Sequence record: NC_019517.1
Strand: one strand, 5' to 3'
DNA from: Escherichia phage FV3
Length of the DNA: 64,000 bases
The stretch's first letter is position 1; every line of letters begins with the position of its first letter. The position numbers were made by a program, and so were the translations under genes. This document shows positions 22,497 through 29,222 of this stretch, piece after piece. The notes below the pieces were generated by a model. The model saw only the letters and a program-made list of their open reading frames with translations, did no database searches and was not told where the DNA came from.

Positions 22497-23294
22497 TAAC
22501 AAACTGGCCGTTGTAAAACTCTCCTAACCTCATAAGAGGGGTCGGTAAATCCGGCTAACGGGGAACGCTAAGGCGAAAGCTATGCCAATCCCGTGACTAG
22601 TTCTTACAGGAGTTGGAACGGTTGTAACGACTAACGAAAGGCAGAGATGCTTGACAAACATTTCTGAACCGAGTAGTGTAGGGGTTAGTTGAAATACTAA
22701 CTTCGAAAGGGAGAGACTCTATGAAAAAGATCATTCTTAATGGTGAAGAATCGAACTACGTGATTGATGAGGTGGGAAACGTATACGGAAAACGTGGAAT
22801 GCTGCACCCCATATTGTGGGGAGGTTATGGAAAAGGTAACAAGCATGTTAAACGCCGCTATATGTATTCTTTCAACCACAAAGGTAAGAAGATTCGAATC
22901 CAAACTTCAAGGGTTGTTGCCTTGTATTGTTTGCCAGATGTCCCAGAAGACCCTGAAAACTGGGAAGTGAATCATAAAGATGGCAATACATTGAATGATC
23001 ATCCGTCTAACCTAGAGTGGGTTTTGCCGGAAGATAATAAGAGACATGCTTTCCGAACAGGGCTTTGTCCAGGCAAGTGCTACAGGAAAGTGCAGGCATA
23101 CCAAGGGAAAACCTTGGTGGGTGAATATCCTTCACTCTATGCCTGTGCAAAAGCCTTAAATTTGAACGTAGGGAACGTCCATAGGGCTATCGAAGGAAAT
23201 GCCGAAGGTAAGCATCTCACAATAAAGGGTTATTATCTTATTGAAGTAGAGTAAGAGATAGTCTGGCCCTGTGGAAACACAGGGGTGGAGACAG
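22497..23294 (+). mobile_element. group I intron in nrdD carrying an HNH homing endonuclease ORF
   Basis: P1 pairing CAACGGT with GGCCGTTG, R-like GACTA and S-like GAGATAGTC elements, P9 hairpin with GAAA loop, terminal G; boundaries inferred. Confidence 0.65.
22721..23254 (+). CDS. intron-encoded HNH homing endonuclease
   Basis: HNH block EVNHKDGNTLNDHPSNLEW; C-terminal DNA-binding module; SD GGGAGAG. Confidence 0.85.
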   Translation: MKKIILNGEESNYVIDEVGNVYGKRGMLHPILWGGYGKGNKHVKRRYMYSFNHKGKKIRIQTSRVVALYCLPDVPEDPENWEVNHKDGNTLNDHPSNLEWVLPEDNKRHAFRTGLCPGKCYRKVQAYQGKTLVGEYPSLYACAKALNLNVGNVHRAIEGNAEGKHLTIKGYYLIEVE

Positions 23295-24554
23295 CAGACT
23301 CCATTCATCACATTAAGTTTAGGGCTGGATACTTCGGTCTTTGGTAGAATGATTACCAAAAACTACTTGAAAGTTCACAAAATGGGTCTTGGTGAAGAAC
23401 GGATCACACCTGTGTTCCCTAAAGTGCTGTTCTTCTTAGAGGAGGGTGTCAACATGAACCCTGGGGATCCTAACTACAATTTGAAACGATTGGCCCTAGA
23501 ATGCTCTGCAGAGCGGATTTATCCTGACTTTGTTTCTGTTCCGCTAAATCGTAAAGTGACAGGTTCAACAGACGGCAAAGTAACAAGCATGGGATGTAGG
23601 TCGTTCCTTGGCAAATACGTTACCCCGGAGGGTGATGAAAAATACCTTGGCAGATTCAACTTGGGTGTTGTTAGCCTTAACCTACCAATGATTGCGGCAA
23701 AAGCTAAGACGGAAGGTATTGATTTCTTTGCAGTTCTTGACGAATACTTGGATCTTGCATACGAGGCTCACCTTGTAAGGGTTAACCGTCTAAAAGGAAC
23801 AAAGGCAGGGCAGAACCCTATCATGTGGTGTGAAGGAGCTCTTGCTCGCCTGGATCCTGAAGAGAGTATCGATAAACTCTTCTATGACGGGTACGCTTCC
23901 ATCAGTATTGGGTATATTGGTGTGTATGAAACCTGTCAGATTTTGGGCAGAGAGGGTGACAAGGCTTTAGCTCTTGGAATCCTTCAGCACATGAAAGATG
24001 CTTGTGATCGATATAAGAAGGAAAGTGGACTAGCATTTAGCTTGTACGGCACACCTTCTGAGAGTTTATGCTATAAAGCTGCAACCTGTCTGGATCGTGA
24101 ATACCCAGAAGTGTTGAAGCACGAGCATGAATACCTCACCAACAGTTTCCATCAGCCGGTATGGATCAATAGCTCGCCTTTTGATAAGTGGAAGTATGAG
24201 GAAGGTTTTGCTATGATCTCCTCTGGTGGCAACATTGGGGACATAGAGACACCGAATCTGAAAAACAACTTAGATGCTTTAGAAGCTCTTGTTGATTTCG
24301 GATATAAACATATTATGTATTTTGGTATTAACCAGCCTGTGGATAAATGTCTTAAGTGTGGATTCTCTGGCGAGTTCAGTGCAACAGCTAAAGGCTTTGT
24401 ATGCCCAGAGTGTGGAAACCATGAAGAAGGAACGATCAGTGTGATCAGACGCGTATCCGGGTATCTGTCCAGTCCAAACTCCCGCCCTTACAATAAGGGT
24501 AAGCAAGCTGAGGTTATAGAACGGGTTAAGCACTACGGAAGTTGTGGTTGCTGA
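23295..24554 (+). CDS. nrdD: anaerobic ribonucleotide reductase NrdD, exon 2
   Basis: QTPFITLSLGLDTS aligns with E. coli NrdD QVPFSSLNFGTDTS; Zn ribbon CLKCG...CPECG; glycyl radical motif RVSGYL. Confidence 0.8.
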   Translation, partial: QTPFITLSLGLDTSVFGRMITKNYLKVHKMGLGEERITPVFPKVLFFLEEGVNMNPGDPNYNLKRLALECSAERIYPDFVSVPLNRKVTGSTDGKVTSMGCRSFLGKYVTPEGDEKYLGRFNLGVVSLNLPMIAAKAKTEGIDFFAVLDEYLDLAYEAHLVRVNRLKGTKAGQNPIMWCEGALARLDPEESIDKLFYDGYASISIGYIGVYETCQILGREGDKALALGILQHMKDACDRYKKESGLAFSLYGTPSESLCYKAATCLDREYPEVLKHEHEYLTNSFHQPVWINSSPFDKWKYEEGFAMISSGGNIGDIETPNLKNNLDALEALVDFGYKHIMYFGINQPVDKCLKCGFSGEFSATAKGFVCPECGNHEEGTISVIRRVSGYLSSPNSRPYNKGKQAEVIERVKHYGSCGC

Positions 24555-25765: not shown

Positions 25766-26554
25766 ATGGGTCGAGCTAAAGAAACAAAACGCATGCGTGA
25801 TGAAGCTAGAGAGGCTCGCAAATCTGATCGCCTGCGTAAGGCTGCTGAAAAATTTGCTGACGAACGAGAGCACACCGCTCCAGCTCTCCGACCAATGAAT
25901 AAAAAGCAGCAAAAGTATCTTGATTATCTAGGGTCGCGTAAGATTATCATTGTAAACGGTGTGTTTGGATCCGGTAAGACATTCATGGCATCTGCATATG
26001 CAGGTGATCTTCTGCGCAAGAACGAGATTGATAAGATCATTGTTGCACGTCCTTACGTTCAGACAGGAAAGACTTCAGGATTTAAACCTGGAAATGCAAT
26101 GCAGAAACTGTGGCCCTATCTTCGAAGCATGATGGACACTATTTGTCGTCGTGTTGGCAAAGGTGCTTTTGCAGCAATGCTTGGGGACGGTCAGAACAGC
26201 CGTATCGAGATTTGTGAGGTTGAAAGCATTCGTGGTCGTAGTTTTGATGAACGATGCTTTGTCCTTATTGATGAAGCACAGCAAACTAACCCTGAAGAAA
26301 TGTTGTCAATTATCACAAGGATCTCTGATCAGGCCACCCTTGTAATTATGGGCGATAACAGCCAACGTGACATCCCTGGTAAATCTGGCCTTGCATGGGT
26401 GACAGATTTCTTTACTCGTCATCCAGATCCTGAGGTTGGAATGATTAGCTTTGATAGTCCAGACGATGTCGTTCGTTCCGGGCTGGGTCGTCAGATTGCA
26501 CTCAATCTTATTGAGGATCGTGCAAATCATATTTGGACTCCTGTTTCCGAGTAA
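25766..26554 (+). CDS. phoH: PhoH-like ATPase
   Basis: Walker A VNGVFGSGKTFMA and downstream PhoH blocks. Confidence 0.9.
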   Translation: MGRAKETKRMRDEAREARKSDRLRKAAEKFADEREHTAPALRPMNKKQQKYLDYLGSRKIIIVNGVFGSGKTFMASAYAGDLLRKNEIDKIIVARPYVQTGKTSGFKPGNAMQKLWPYLRSMMDTICRRVGKGAFAAMLGDGQNSRIEICEVESIRGRSFDERCFVLIDEAQQTNPEEMLSIITRISDQATLVIMGDNSQRDIPGKSGLAWVTDFFTRHPDPEVGMISFDSPDDVVRSGLGRQIALNLIEDRANHIWTPVSE

Positions 26555-26558
26555 TACA

Positions 26559-26586
26559 GAAGGGTGGTTATTCCACCCTTAAATAT
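26559..26586 (+). terminator. rho-independent terminator
   Basis: AGGGTGG-TTATT-CCACCCT hairpin after phoH stop. Confidence 0.6.
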
Positions 26587-26598
26587 CTAAAACAGTTG

Positions 26599-26627
26599 TT
26601 GACAAACAGGTGAGCTTTAGATATTAT
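26599..26627 (+). promoter_or_regulatory. sigma70-like promoter TTGACA-N17-TATTAT
   Basis: consensus hexamers. Confidence 0.6.
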
Positions 26628-26657
26628 TATTGGACAAAACAAGGAGAAGGACACAGT

Positions 26658-26969
26658 ATGGCTACAATACAAGAGAGACTGAATAAAATATACTGCCTGT
26701 TTGTCTATAACGGTGAGACAATTTTGGCAAATAAGGGATCCAAGAGTGTGTGGACCAAGGACAGTGGTGGTAACATAATCAACTTAGCGTTGCTACGTGA
26801 GCGCAGACACAGATTCTTTATCGAGTCTCGGATTATTGAAAGCAGCACCTGCTACAGAACAGGCGATAAAGTAATTGTTGACAATGATACGTGGTATGTG
26901 GTAGACTGGCAATCATTGAGCTGTGATGCTTCTGACAATCGTAAGTATTCTATAGTGATTGCTAAATAA
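26658..26969 (+). CDS. hypothetical protein (103 aa)
   Basis: ATG with SD AAGGAGAAGG; track ORF begins inside the promoter. Confidence 0.45.
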   Translation: MATIQERLNKIYCLFVYNGETILANKGSKSVWTKDSGGNIINLALLRERRHRFFIESRIIESSTCYRTGDKVIVDNDTWYVVDWQSLSCDASDNRKYSIVIAK

Positions 26970-27029
26970 AGGTAAATGTGAATCAGGTTTAAATAAATAG
27001 CTTTCAACTTCCAATATTAAGGATTTCTC

Positions 27030-28079
27030 ATGAATTTAACACCTCGCAGCACCATGGTACACGGCATGAAAGAAAAACAGAACGGTTTCGAACCTATGAG
27101 TAACAAAATGTTTGGTATGCCTGGTGGTATTATGGAAACATACAGCTACCCAACACCTGTTGTTGACCACGTTCTTTATATCGACGATTTGGACGACCTA
27201 CAAGATCATATGTCTCGTCTACAGACGATCCGTATGGCTCAGCCAGAAGAAAGTATCCGTGTAATCATTAACAGCCCTGGTGGTTGCGTTCACATTGCTA
27301 TGGCGTATTTGCAGGCATTCCGCGAGTCTCAGGCAAGCGTTGTTGTACACGCTGAAGGGATGTGCTGTTCAGCAGGAACAATCTTATGGCTAGGTTGCAA
27401 AGAACGAACTGTGGCTCCGGACACAGAATTTATGTTCCACTATTATCAAGGTGGCACTTATGGTAACGGCGTGAACATGAATACCCAGGTCAACTACTGG
27501 AAGAAACGTTTTGAACGCCTGATCGAAAAATACTACGGTGGGGTGTTAACAGAAGATGAGATCGCATCCATCACAGCTGGCGGTGAAGTGTGGTTAGATG
27601 GAGAAGAGCTGGCATCTAGAACTGGTGCTATCATTCTGGACGATGAAAACATTCAGCGCATTCAGAATGGACAGAAACCGAAAAAGCTTTTGGCAAAAAG
27701 TGATGAAGAAGGTGTGCTAGGCGAAGCAGGCCTGCCAGAGATTCACCAATGCACATCTTTGGACGAGCTGGTTCATGCTGTTGAGTCTGCAAAAGAAAAT
27801 GGTATGAAAGGTGATGTTCACACTGTGTTCCTGAATCTGCAGATGGAGAGTGGTGAGACCGTTAAGATTGCACTGGGTGAGATTACCTCGGAAGATCTGC
27901 AGCGATTCTCTGTGGTAGAGCTTCAGGACATTTTGTCCCAATTGAAAACTACCCTGAACGGAGGTGAAGAAGTTCAGGTGAAAGATAAGACTCGCAAGCG
28001 TCTGGTGGACAATATTATTAAAACAGCAAAAGAGCTCAATGAAAAAATCCTGGGCGCAGGAATTGTCGAAGAAGCTTAA
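27030..28079 (+). CDS. ClpP-like serine protease with C-terminal extension
   Basis: INSPGGCV, catalytic-Ser context MCCSAG, His context FMFHYYQGG; about 150 extra C-terminal residues. Confidence 0.7.
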   Translation: MNLTPRSTMVHGMKEKQNGFEPMSNKMFGMPGGIMETYSYPTPVVDHVLYIDDLDDLQDHMSRLQTIRMAQPEESIRVIINSPGGCVHIAMAYLQAFRESQASVVVHAEGMCCSAGTILWLGCKERTVAPDTEFMFHYYQGGTYGNGVNMNTQVNYWKKRFERLIEKYYGGVLTEDEIASITAGGEVWLDGEELASRTGAIILDDENIQRIQNGQKPKKLLAKSDEEGVLGEAGLPEIHQCTSLDELVHAVESAKENGMKGDVHTVFLNLQMESGETVKIALGEITSEDLQRFSVVELQDILSQLKTTLNGGEEVQVKDKTRKRLVDNIIKTAKELNEKILGAGIVEEA

Positions 28080-28090
28080 ACATTAATTCT

Positions 28091-28116
28091 AAAGCCCTCT
28101 TCGGAGGGCTTTTATG
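28091..28116 (+). terminator. rho-independent terminator
   Basis: AAAGCCCTC-TTCG-GAGGGCTTT followed by TAT. Confidence 0.7.
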
Positions 28117-28130
28117 ATCTGGAGATTTGC

Positions 28131-28664
28131 ATGACTTGTGCTAGAAAACCTGATGAACAACGTAACGCTTACGACGAGTATGTGACACCGGAGTGGTGTG
28201 CAGAAGGGCTGTATGACCTTATTCCGTTCCCAGAAGACTGGACCTACTTAGAGCCTTGCAGGAATAGCGCTTCAGGTGTGTTCTACTCCCGTATGCCGTT
28301 AGGATCTGCATGGGGAGAAATTCAAGAAGGTGTTGACTATCTGAATACAGAATACAACCATGTTGACTGTATTATCACCAACCCGCCGTACAGCCTGGCT
28401 CGTGAGTTTGTGGACAAGGCGTTGAAAGATGCCGACGTAGTTATTATGCTTTTGCGTCTTAATTTTCTGGAAAGCAAGACCAGATTTGAATGGTGGCTTG
28501 ATAATGCACCTACCACTGTGATCACAATATCTAAGCGTCCGTCATTCCAATCCAATGGTAGAACGGATGGGCAGGCATATGCCTATTTTGTATGGGACAA
28601 GAAAAACCGTCTAGGCTTGCCGCCATTTATGTGGTTGGCACCACCAGAGGCAGACTTGAAATGA
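28131..28664 (+). CDS. small N6-adenine DNA methyltransferase
   Basis: motif IV DCIITNPPY. Confidence 0.7.
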   Translation: MTCARKPDEQRNAYDEYVTPEWCAEGLYDLIPFPEDWTYLEPCRNSASGVFYSRMPLGSAWGEIQEGVDYLNTEYNHVDCIITNPPYSLAREFVDKALKDADVVIMLLRLNFLESKTRFEWWLDNAPTTVITISKRPSFQSNGRTDGQAYAYFVWDKKNRLGLPPFMWLAPPEADLK

Positions 28665-28945
28665 AAATAAGTGCTAAGGACAAGTTGCACCAGTTAGCGC
28701 TAAAACGTCCTGTAACGCTTCCTGACGAGCTTAACTCTATTTATGATGCGATTGTAGGGGAGATACAAAATAAAGCGTTAGCAGGCTTTCTGGGATGCGG
28801 ATTTTCGATAAATCTTCCATCGCACCTCTCAGACTACTTCCCACACATCGTTGGGGATTTGAGGGCAGGAGGTCTGCAGGTGGATGTTGTTGGCATCTCT
28901 CCGGAGAAAAATAACACGGTTGCCTACTTGACAGTAACCTGGTAG
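28661..28945 (+). CDS. hypothetical protein (94 aa)
   Basis: internal ATG overlapping upstream stop; track ORF 28592..28945. Confidence 0.4.
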   Translation: MKISAKDKLHQLALKRPVTLPDELNSIYDAIVGEIQNKALAGFLGCGFSINLPSHLSDYFPHIVGDLRAGGLQVDVVGISPEKNNTVAYLTVTW

Positions 28946-28982
28946 TGGTGTATTTTGTTTTCAACAAGAGGGGGTGTCATCT

Positions 28983-29222
28983 ATGTACAAGTCATTTTCA
29001 ATCTACTCAAGACAGGCAAAACACTACACGGAGATTCTGATCACTCAGAAAAAGTCTGTAGAAGGTGAGTGGGAATATCATCATAAAATGTTGCGTCCAG
29101 ACTGGGTTTTTGATAGACTTATTGCTATGATTCCTCTTGGAGAAGTATACCCTCTGACAGGTCATAGGGATGCTTGGGATTTAATTGATTACATAGATTC
29201 ATTTAAGGAGCCTGGTGTATGA
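28983..29222 (+). CDS. hypothetical protein (79 aa)
   Basis: track ORF 28974..29222, ATG start preferred. Confidence 0.4.
   Translation: MYKSFSIYSRQAKHYTEILITQKKSVEGEWEYHHKMLRPDWVFDRLIAMIPLGEVYPLTGHRDAWDLIDYIDSFKEPGV

Follow-up and report, generated by a model that had tools for sequence, protein, structure and literature searches.

A ClpP-like protease gene in the nucleotide-metabolism block of Escherichia phage FV3: a distinct ClpP-fold variant and its recurrent linkage to phoH

The stretch of Escherichia phage FV3 analyzed here (NC_019517.1, 64,000 nucleotides; referred to as the window) carries, on the plus strand at 27030-28079, a gene for a ClpP-like serine protease of 349 amino acids (aa). 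The reading favored here, which is fairly probable, is that its product is a non-structural, active, self-compartmentalizing ClpP-fold peptidase of early or middle infection, lacking canonical docking to ClpX or ClpA and relying on its own appendages and/or on phage partners. Such a protease would work in the infected cell, not inside the prohead, and would form rings that enclose the active sites as in ClpP. Substrate delivery and gating would be provided by its own appendages, namely a conserved N-terminal segment and an orphan C-terminal hairpin/two-helix module, and/or by phage partners, for which a co-transcribed 103-aa protein and an often adjacent PhoH-like ATPase are the first candidates to consider. 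Most plausibly, it would degrade cytoplasmic proteins of the host or the phage in the early or middle phase, in the service of takeover, regulation or recycling; the degradation of host factors, proposed in an earlier note made from the sequence alone, is possible.

The open reading frame (ORF) is preceded by an AAGGA ribosome-binding site 7 nt upstream, and 120 phage records match the gene at 80% identity or more. Positions 26000-29000 of the window are 95-98% identical to phages SYGMH1, VB-EcoM-WM and DrSchubert (95.6% at the nucleotide level for DrSchubert), which places the DNA among the rV5-like coliphages of the genus Vequintavirus. This is a genuine and conserved gene, not an open frame arisen by chance. 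Since the 2013 rV5 paper (PMC3606486, Table S3) gives its rV5 ortholog, gp122 (349 aa), the name "ClpP (ATP-dependent) protease subunit", the gene itself is not new, and over 100 genomes already carry the annotation. The novelty lies in setting the protein apart as a variant of its own within the ClpP kind, and in the linkage to phoH. Literature searches on characterized phage-encoded ClpP, on the Vequintavirus Clp protease and on phoH together with clpP returned genome annotations only, with no functional work among them.

Architecture and active site of the protease

The gene and the parts of its product are located as follows.

27030..28079, plus strand: ClpP-like serine protease gene (349 aa; rV5 gp122 ortholog), from the ORF call, Pfam, PHROG and the rV5 table.
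27030..27161, plus strand: N-terminal region, residues 1-44; predicted local distance difference test (pLDDT) score below 50 for residues 1-43.
27162..27629, plus strand: ClpP-fold catalytic core, residues 45-200, from alignments to ClpP structures in the PDB, Foldseek and conservation in 152 relatives.
27630..27821, plus strand: variable linker, residues 201-264, largely disordered; pLDDT below 50 at residues 222-241 and 258-263.
27822..28058, plus strand: C-terminal module, residues 265-343, modeled as a beta-hairpin followed by two long helices.
27369-27371, 27438-27440 and 27585-27587, plus strand: catalytic codons for Ser114, His137 and Glu186, respectively.

The Pfam CLP_protease family matches residues 59-168 (E=4.2e-13, 50 bits vs a gathering score of 20.2), and the full length of the protein matches PHROG 5410, "ATP-dependent protease" (E=2.9e-155). 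In an AlphaFold model for which 13 family sequences were used, residues 45-220 and 265-343 are predicted with confidence, and residues 1-43 and the linker at 222-241 are disordered. In the Foldseek search, the best 50 of 1140 PDB matches (E<=0.001) are all ClpP, with target-normalized template modeling scores of 0.55-0.74 and approximately 165 aligned columns in most. A ClpP-like protease with a C-terminal extension of about 150 aa, as first described from the sequence, is thus what is found: the ClpP-fold core is followed by a 149-aa extension (residues 201-349), and the motifs INSPGG, MCCSAG and FMFHYYQGG are present at residues 80, 111 and 134. The description of this extension as acidic is correct in itself (net charge -10, isoelectric point 4.8 for residues 201-349), but the core is equally acidic. 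From ClpP, the model and the alignment retain the handle helix (residues 150-169) and the Gly-rich strand; their retention, seen in single-chain models, suggests assembly into rings that enclose the active sites.

The N-terminal region, modeled as disordered, carries a conserved FG-x-P-G...Y-S-Y-P motif, in which N25, G29, Y40 and P41 are invariant within Vequintavirinae. The linker contains, judging from the alignment indel relative to the 4MG-type proteins, an insertion specific to Vequintavirus. The C-terminal module is conserved and yet, as far as sequence and model comparisons reach, an orphan that is family-specific and has no known fold; no sequence or structural match to helix-extended-helix domains of the HeH, SAP or Rho_N type was found.

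For the active site, HMMER alignments to solved ClpPs bring Ser114 and His137 into register with the catalytic Ser and His (ClpP Ser97 and His122), and Glu186 into register with the catalytic Asp (ClpP Asp171), with "ERDFWL" opposite "GGEVWL". The Ser-His-Asp triad anticipated in the earlier note therefore holds for its first two members, whereas the third residue is Glu and not Asp. An exhaustive profile search returned 8254 relatives at E<=0.001, and 152 of the closest cluster representatives (from clusters at 50% identity or less) were used for the alignment. Ser114 and His137 are invariant in all 152; the oxyanion-hole glycines G84 and G85 are kept in 152/152 and 151/152, respectively; and position 186 is acidic in 136 (Asp in 106, Glu in 30), with Gln in 10 and Thr in 4. 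The invariant Ser and His, the oxyanion glycines and the mostly acidic third position indicate that the family is under selection for catalysis, and the protein is probably an active ClpP-fold serine peptidase. These same counts make it most improbable that the gene encodes a catalytically dead ClpP-fold protein, whether its task were to decoy or inhibit host ClpP or were structural or regulatory, even though ClpR-type inactive ClpP paralogues exist in other systems and the 4MG subclade has Gln as its third triad residue.

Host Clp ATPases and the head-protease question

In E. coli ClpP, the pocket that receives acyldepsipeptide antibiotics (ADEP) and the IGF/IGL loops of the partner ATPases includes Y60, Y62, F82, I90 and M92 (bioRxiv 10.1101/2023.03.01.530711). 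By alignment, not by coordinates, these positions correspond to R77, I79, E99, H107 and E109 of the phage protease. Within Vequintavirinae, R77, E99, H107 and E109 are invariant and I79 varies. Across the 152 relatives the pocket positions are mostly polar or acidic: the position of F82 is occupied mainly by Glu, Asn, Asp or Gln, and that of M92 by Glu in 99/152. As conserved polar or acidic residues stand where the hydrophobic docking residues would be, the hijacking of host ClpX or ClpA put forward in the earlier note is disfavored, and the protease probably does not dock these ATPases through the canonical hydrophobic pockets. Since the canonical pocket has probably been lost, substrate delivery that depends on appendages or partners becomes the more natural expectation.

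The host, E. coli, does encode both ClpX and ClpA, and the ClpP fold, the triad and the handle region are all kept, so that the phage protein might be thought of as an alternative proteolytic chamber for these ATPases, one that redirects the ATP-dependent proteolysis of the host. As much is implied by the name under which it appears in databases, "ATP-dependent Clp protease proteolytic subunit". Apart from the pocket, this proposal is opposed by the N-terminal region, which corresponds to the axial loops, is unrelated in sequence and is modeled as disordered, and by a profile score far under the ClpP equivalog threshold (TIGR00493 of NCBIfam, 33.5 vs a cut-off of 308.6 bits). Taken together, such hijacking is decidedly unlikely, and the partnering with a Clp ATPase implied by the decade-old name "ClpP ATP-dependent protease subunit" is unsupported by the sequence.

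All PRK ClpP models likewise score below threshold. The ClpP-related head-maturation protease family NF045542 of NCBIfam gives 62.8 bits (E 3.6e-17), also below its cut-off of 120. Falling under every curated NCBIfam threshold, the protein represents a separate branch, which lies somewhat closer to the branch of phage head proteases.

The position of a head protease is filled by another gene in near-identical relatives. The head module of DrSchubert runs terminase, portal, a 139-aa "prohead protease" (bas50_0006), scaffold, decoration and major capsid protein (MCP), and the 139-aa protein belongs to Pfam Peptidase_S78_2 (XkdF; E=8.7e-18, 65 bits vs a cut-off of 24). The protease of FV3 is not flanked by capsid genes, as had been pointed out from the sequence; a tblastn search of the whole 64 kb detects no gene for a portal, a head protease, a scaffold or a capsid protein. 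It lies instead between phoH and a methyltransferase gene, in a block with NrdA/B, glutaredoxin and NrdD/G, that is, among functions of nucleotide metabolism and replication.

The same division is seen in other, unrelated phages. In PaP1, the ClpP-like gp041 has tRNAs, dCMP deaminase and ligase around it and is distant from the head module, where the place between portal and MCP is taken by gp048, a homologue of the XkdF protease (E=2.7e-7). In KVP40, clpP sits between gp32/frd and uvsX. The Barba phages carry a CLP_protease, gp072, beside phoH and have a different peptidase, gp097, between portal and MCP, and siphovirus P26059A encodes XkdF as ORF10 and ClpP as ORF116. Among the 19 proteins identified by mass spectrometry in the rV5 virion, none of six gp122 peptide strings derived from the window was found. 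The role beyond prohead maturation proposed earlier is thus well supported, by the XkdF/S78_2 protease in the structural module of near-identical relatives, by the early-type transcription unit described below, by the same split in PaP1, KVP40 and Barba, and by the virion data, shallow as they are. A function of this protein as the head protease of rV5-like phages is very unlikely.

A related proposal is that of a displaced or second head-maturation protease, which would enter proheads, use the C-terminal module for targeting to capsid or scaffold, and process capsid or internal proteins. Its appeal lies in the best curated similarity being to NF045542 and to PHROG 1684, 94, 2976 and 133, in the C-terminal targeting extensions that prohead proteases commonly bear, and in a Gordonia capsid maturation protease that tblastn aligns up to residue 334. 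The NF045542 score is nevertheless below the family cut-off, the gene is outside the head module, where the canonical XkdF protease occupies the slot, and its promoter is of the sigma70 type and not the late motif of rV5 structural genes. The absence from the 19 virion proteins points in the same direction, as does KVP40, in which clpP would coexist with head machinery of the T4 type, since T4-like phages encode gp21. A hidden Markov model (HMM) of the C-terminal module finds no match in the largest head-protease-like cluster, the 16-locus cluster that contains the Gordonia locus, nor in the other low-scoring clusters. Such a second head protease is therefore improbable. The idea that the extension is homologous to C-terminal portions of head proteases, prompted by the Gordonia alignment to residue 334, was rejected (0/16 loci with a module hit).

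As a separate observation on the XkdF proteins, the best PHROG of the rV5-like and Pakpunavirus XkdF/S78_2 prohead proteases is phrog_1530, described as "DNA methyltransferase" (DrSchubert bas50_0006, L003:4838-5257; PaP1 gp048, L088:2525-2995). PaP1 gp048 is annotated "N6 adenine-specific DNA methyltransferase" despite its place between portal and scaffold, which looks like a spreading mis-annotation.

Transcription unit, neighboring genes and linkage to phoH

The features surrounding the protease gene are the following.

25766..26554, plus strand: PhoH-like P-loop ATPase gene, 262 aa (Pfam PhoH, E=3.6e-47; PHROG 170; NCBIfam PhoH, 137.9 bits vs an equivalog cut-off of 380).
26560..26580, plus strand: hairpin 3' of phoH, AAGGGTGG-TTATT-CCACCCTT, with no T-run, read from the sequence.
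26599..26627, plus strand: sigma70-type promoter, TTGACA-17-TATTAT, 11/12 matches, corresponding to rV5 P121.
26658..26969, plus strand: 103-aa ORF, rV5 gp121 ortholog (PHROG 5456, E=6.8e-39).
28094..28115, plus strand: Rho-independent terminator GCCCTC-TTCG-GAGGGC-TTTTAT, directly 3' of the stop codon and identical to rV5 t122.
28131..28664, plus strand: putative DNA N6-adenine methyltransferase gene, 177 aa (PHROG 799, E=3.9e-67; weak matches to Pfam Dam and EcoRI_methylase).

The flanks named in the earlier note require one adjustment: the methyltransferase-like gene does follow directly, but phoH is two genes upstream, because the 103-aa ORF intervenes. The predicted promoter P121 and the terminator t122 are both listed for rV5 (PMC3606486, Table S4). 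The 103-aa ORF and the protease would accordingly be co-transcribed as a two-gene unit of promoter, ORF, protease and terminator, as predicted from these signals. The ORF is upstream and on the same strand in 26/26 loci of the Vequintavirinae type, at a gap of 54-60 nt or of 426-493 nt. The shared unit and this constant co-location mark its product as a candidate for a partner of the protease or for its regulator. It has no match in Pfam, NCBIfam or PADLOC. In the GenBank record of VB-EcoM-WM the 103-aa ORF itself is labeled "ClpP ATP-dependent protease subunit", a label for which no support was found.

The rV5 authors described a distinct "late" motif 5' of structural genes (PMC3606486). This motif, TGGTAAAATA, shows no enrichment across the window, with 12 matches vs 7.2 expected, and upstream of the protease only a copy with one mismatch occurs, inside the 103-aa ORF. 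With no enrichment and that single imperfect copy, the scan for the late motif is uninformative. The hairpin at 26560..26580 was not flagged in the terminator scan.

The linkage to phoH was examined in 78 IMG/VR loci, retrieved with a 14-sequence alignment as query, plus GenBank loci; ORFs were called and searched with the PhoH HMM, and loci scoring at least 88 bits were assigned to the clade. A PhoH gene is located upstream, on the same strand and within 3.5 kb in 34/59 clade loci, compared with 0/28 lower-scoring head-protease-like loci. After clustering at 50% identity, PhoH is adjacent in 8/12 lineages (upstream in seven and immediately downstream in one) vs 0/7 for the head-protease-like group (one-sided Fisher p=0.0065, not phylogenetically corrected). 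It is the most widespread neighbor, ahead of NrdB (5/12) and NrdA (4/12). The coupling can be tight, with an 8-nt overlap of the two genes in KIL4, a 2-nt gap in Barba5S and 45-nt gaps in the loci L055 and L056, and the pair is also present in ICP1 and in P26059A (ORF116/117). A methyltransferase-like gene 3' of the protease recurs as well: one is found there in the Rheinheimera Barba phages (Barba5S gp078; L008:5774-6586), so that the order phoH, protease, methylase is repeated in two phages that are very distant from each other. In ICP1, phoH and the ClpP-like gene are separated by an inserted HNH endonuclease gene (ORF209; L005:4038-4670). Given this insertion and a phoH-protease gap that varies between 0.47 and 2.0 kb in several Vequintavirinae, the interval seems particularly prone to acquiring small or mobile ORFs.

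The frequency of this pairing, its tightness and the breadth of its distribution speak for an ATP-dependent protease in which the PhoH-like ATPase, perhaps with the 103-aa protein as well, would feed or activate the peptidase, in place of the AAA+ unfoldase for which the docking pocket has been lost. PhoH and the ClpP-like peptidase would then constitute, in at least eight diverged lineages, a non-AAA+ ATP-dependent proteolytic machine, or a coupled machine for RNA and protein degradation, and the lost ClpX pocket, with the conserved charged surface or the C-terminal module, may form a new docking interface. Several observations render this unlikely. PaP1, which has a clade member, encodes no PhoH anywhere in its genome (best score 11 bits), so that any partnership is not obligatory, and an obligate one is weakened as a candidate. 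PhoH was likewise not found within the fetched flanks of Klebsiella phi1_146058 (approximately 5 kb on each side), of KVP40-like loci (3.8-8 kb) and of 17/22 loci in one metagenomic cluster. In the window, the hairpin and a separate promoter stand between phoH and the protease unit. Nrd and ligase genes are also nearby in several phages, and part of the synteny may therefore have been inherited with the replication module and not selected. Finally, PhoH relatives are known as ATPases associated with RNA helicases and RNases, not as unfoldases, in agreement with the NCBIfam PhoH2 match. If the machine is real, it would provide the first concrete biochemical role for viral phoH, a widely used marker gene.

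Some further observations concern the surrounding DNA. The NrdD region (window 23271-24554; L002:1-1735) varies among relatives: it is intact in DrSchubert, and in VB-EcoM-WM NrdD is annotated as fragments on either side of a hypothetical protein of 311 aa. This suggests that some genomes carry a mobile element here, for instance a homing endonuclease or an intron. Between approximately 38000 and 42000 of the window the GC skew changes sign, with the cumulative peak at about 40 kb, coinciding with the switch of coding strand from plus to minus on the DrSchubert map. About 18-19 records named "Campylobacter phage" (host C. jejuni; e.g., MG065661.1, C9) are 90-96% identical to rV5-like coliphages over the region, and their host or name looks doubtful, through contamination or mislabeling.

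Several points weigh against the reading of the protein as a non-structural peptidase with delivery means of its own. The docking-pocket comparison runs through an alignment at approximately 20% identity to an E. coli ClpP sequence whose numbering did reproduce S97, H122, Y60, Y62, F82, I90 and M92. In the 4MG-type subclade of Vequintavirinae the third triad position is Gln. The profile is nearer to phage head-maturation proteases (NF045542, 62.8 bits; PHROG 1684 and 94) than to cellular ClpP (TIGR00493, 33.5 bits), so that the family may derive from a head protease. The absence of gp122 from the rV5 virion is weak evidence, because the data set of 19 proteins is shallow, the peptides were derived from the window, and a head protease might be missing from mature particles anyway. 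Early expression of the protease is predicted from the promoter consensus only.

Should the favored reading hold, the protein would belong to a distinct and widespread non-morphogenetic ClpP-fold clade of large lytic phages, comprising the rV5-like phages, ICP1, KVP40, Pakpunavirus, Flaumdravirus and Barbavirus. Recognizing this clade would correct the annotation and provide an accessible system in which to study how phages direct proteolysis while they take over the host. The recurrent linkage also gives an experimental entry point to viral phoH, an ecological marker gene, and several members belong to model systems with existing genetics, namely the BASEL phage DrSchubert (Bas50), ICP1 and KVP40.

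Relation to known ClpP-fold systems

Defense or anti-defense systems were rejected as an affiliation, since among the PADLOC models the protease gives only a spurious 14-bit match to Csx1. With the ATP-independent proteases of the SppA/S49, NfeD and SDH types (PF01972, PF25145) it shares the ClpP/crotonase-like fold; they act with no AAA+ partner, a mode that is one possibility for the protease too. These families score below threshold (PF01972, 18.2 vs 31.3 bits; PF25145, 15.4 vs 40; NF047768, 26.5 vs 250). SppA and NfeD use a Ser-Lys dyad, whereas the Ser-His-acid arrangement is kept in the family of the protease.

Compared with bacterial ClpP (MEROPS S14; PF00574; e.g., E. coli ClpP, PDB 1TYF and 1YG6), the same fold extends over approximately 165 residues, with Ser and His in register, an acidic residue at the Asp171 site, the oxyanion Gly-Gly pair, the handle helix and the Gly-rich strand. 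The differences are an identity of about 20%, Glu in place of Asp in the triad, pocket residues R, I, E, H and E, a different N-terminus with no similarity to the propeptide, and the extra 149-aa extension with its orphan module; moreover, the gene is phage-encoded and no clpX adjoins it.

The ClpP-related phage head-maturation proteases (NF045542; PHROGs 1684, 94, 133 and 2976, including protease-MCP fusions) show the best curated profile similarity, and they too are phage-borne and combine a ClpP-like core with a C-terminal extension. The protease of FV3 differs from them in falling below the family cut-off, in its location outside the head module of a genome type that has another head protease, in not being detected in virions, in its early-type promoter, and in a C-terminal module that the two groups do not have in common.

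A further related group is that of the short PHROG 1827 "ATP-dependent protease" proteins, namely ICP1 ORF211, KVP40 ClpP, PaP1 gp041, KIL4 gp031 and Barba gp079, which belong to the same clade (PHROG 1827 match, E=3.3e-39; 25-39% identity). Like the FV3 protein, they are non-structural, are encoded among genes of replication and nucleotide metabolism, and often lie beside phoH. Most of them measure 180-240 aa and do not contain the C-terminal module; in the Vequintavirinae proteins (PHROG 5410), by comparison, the linker and the C-terminal module have been added, and the 103-aa ORF is always alongside.

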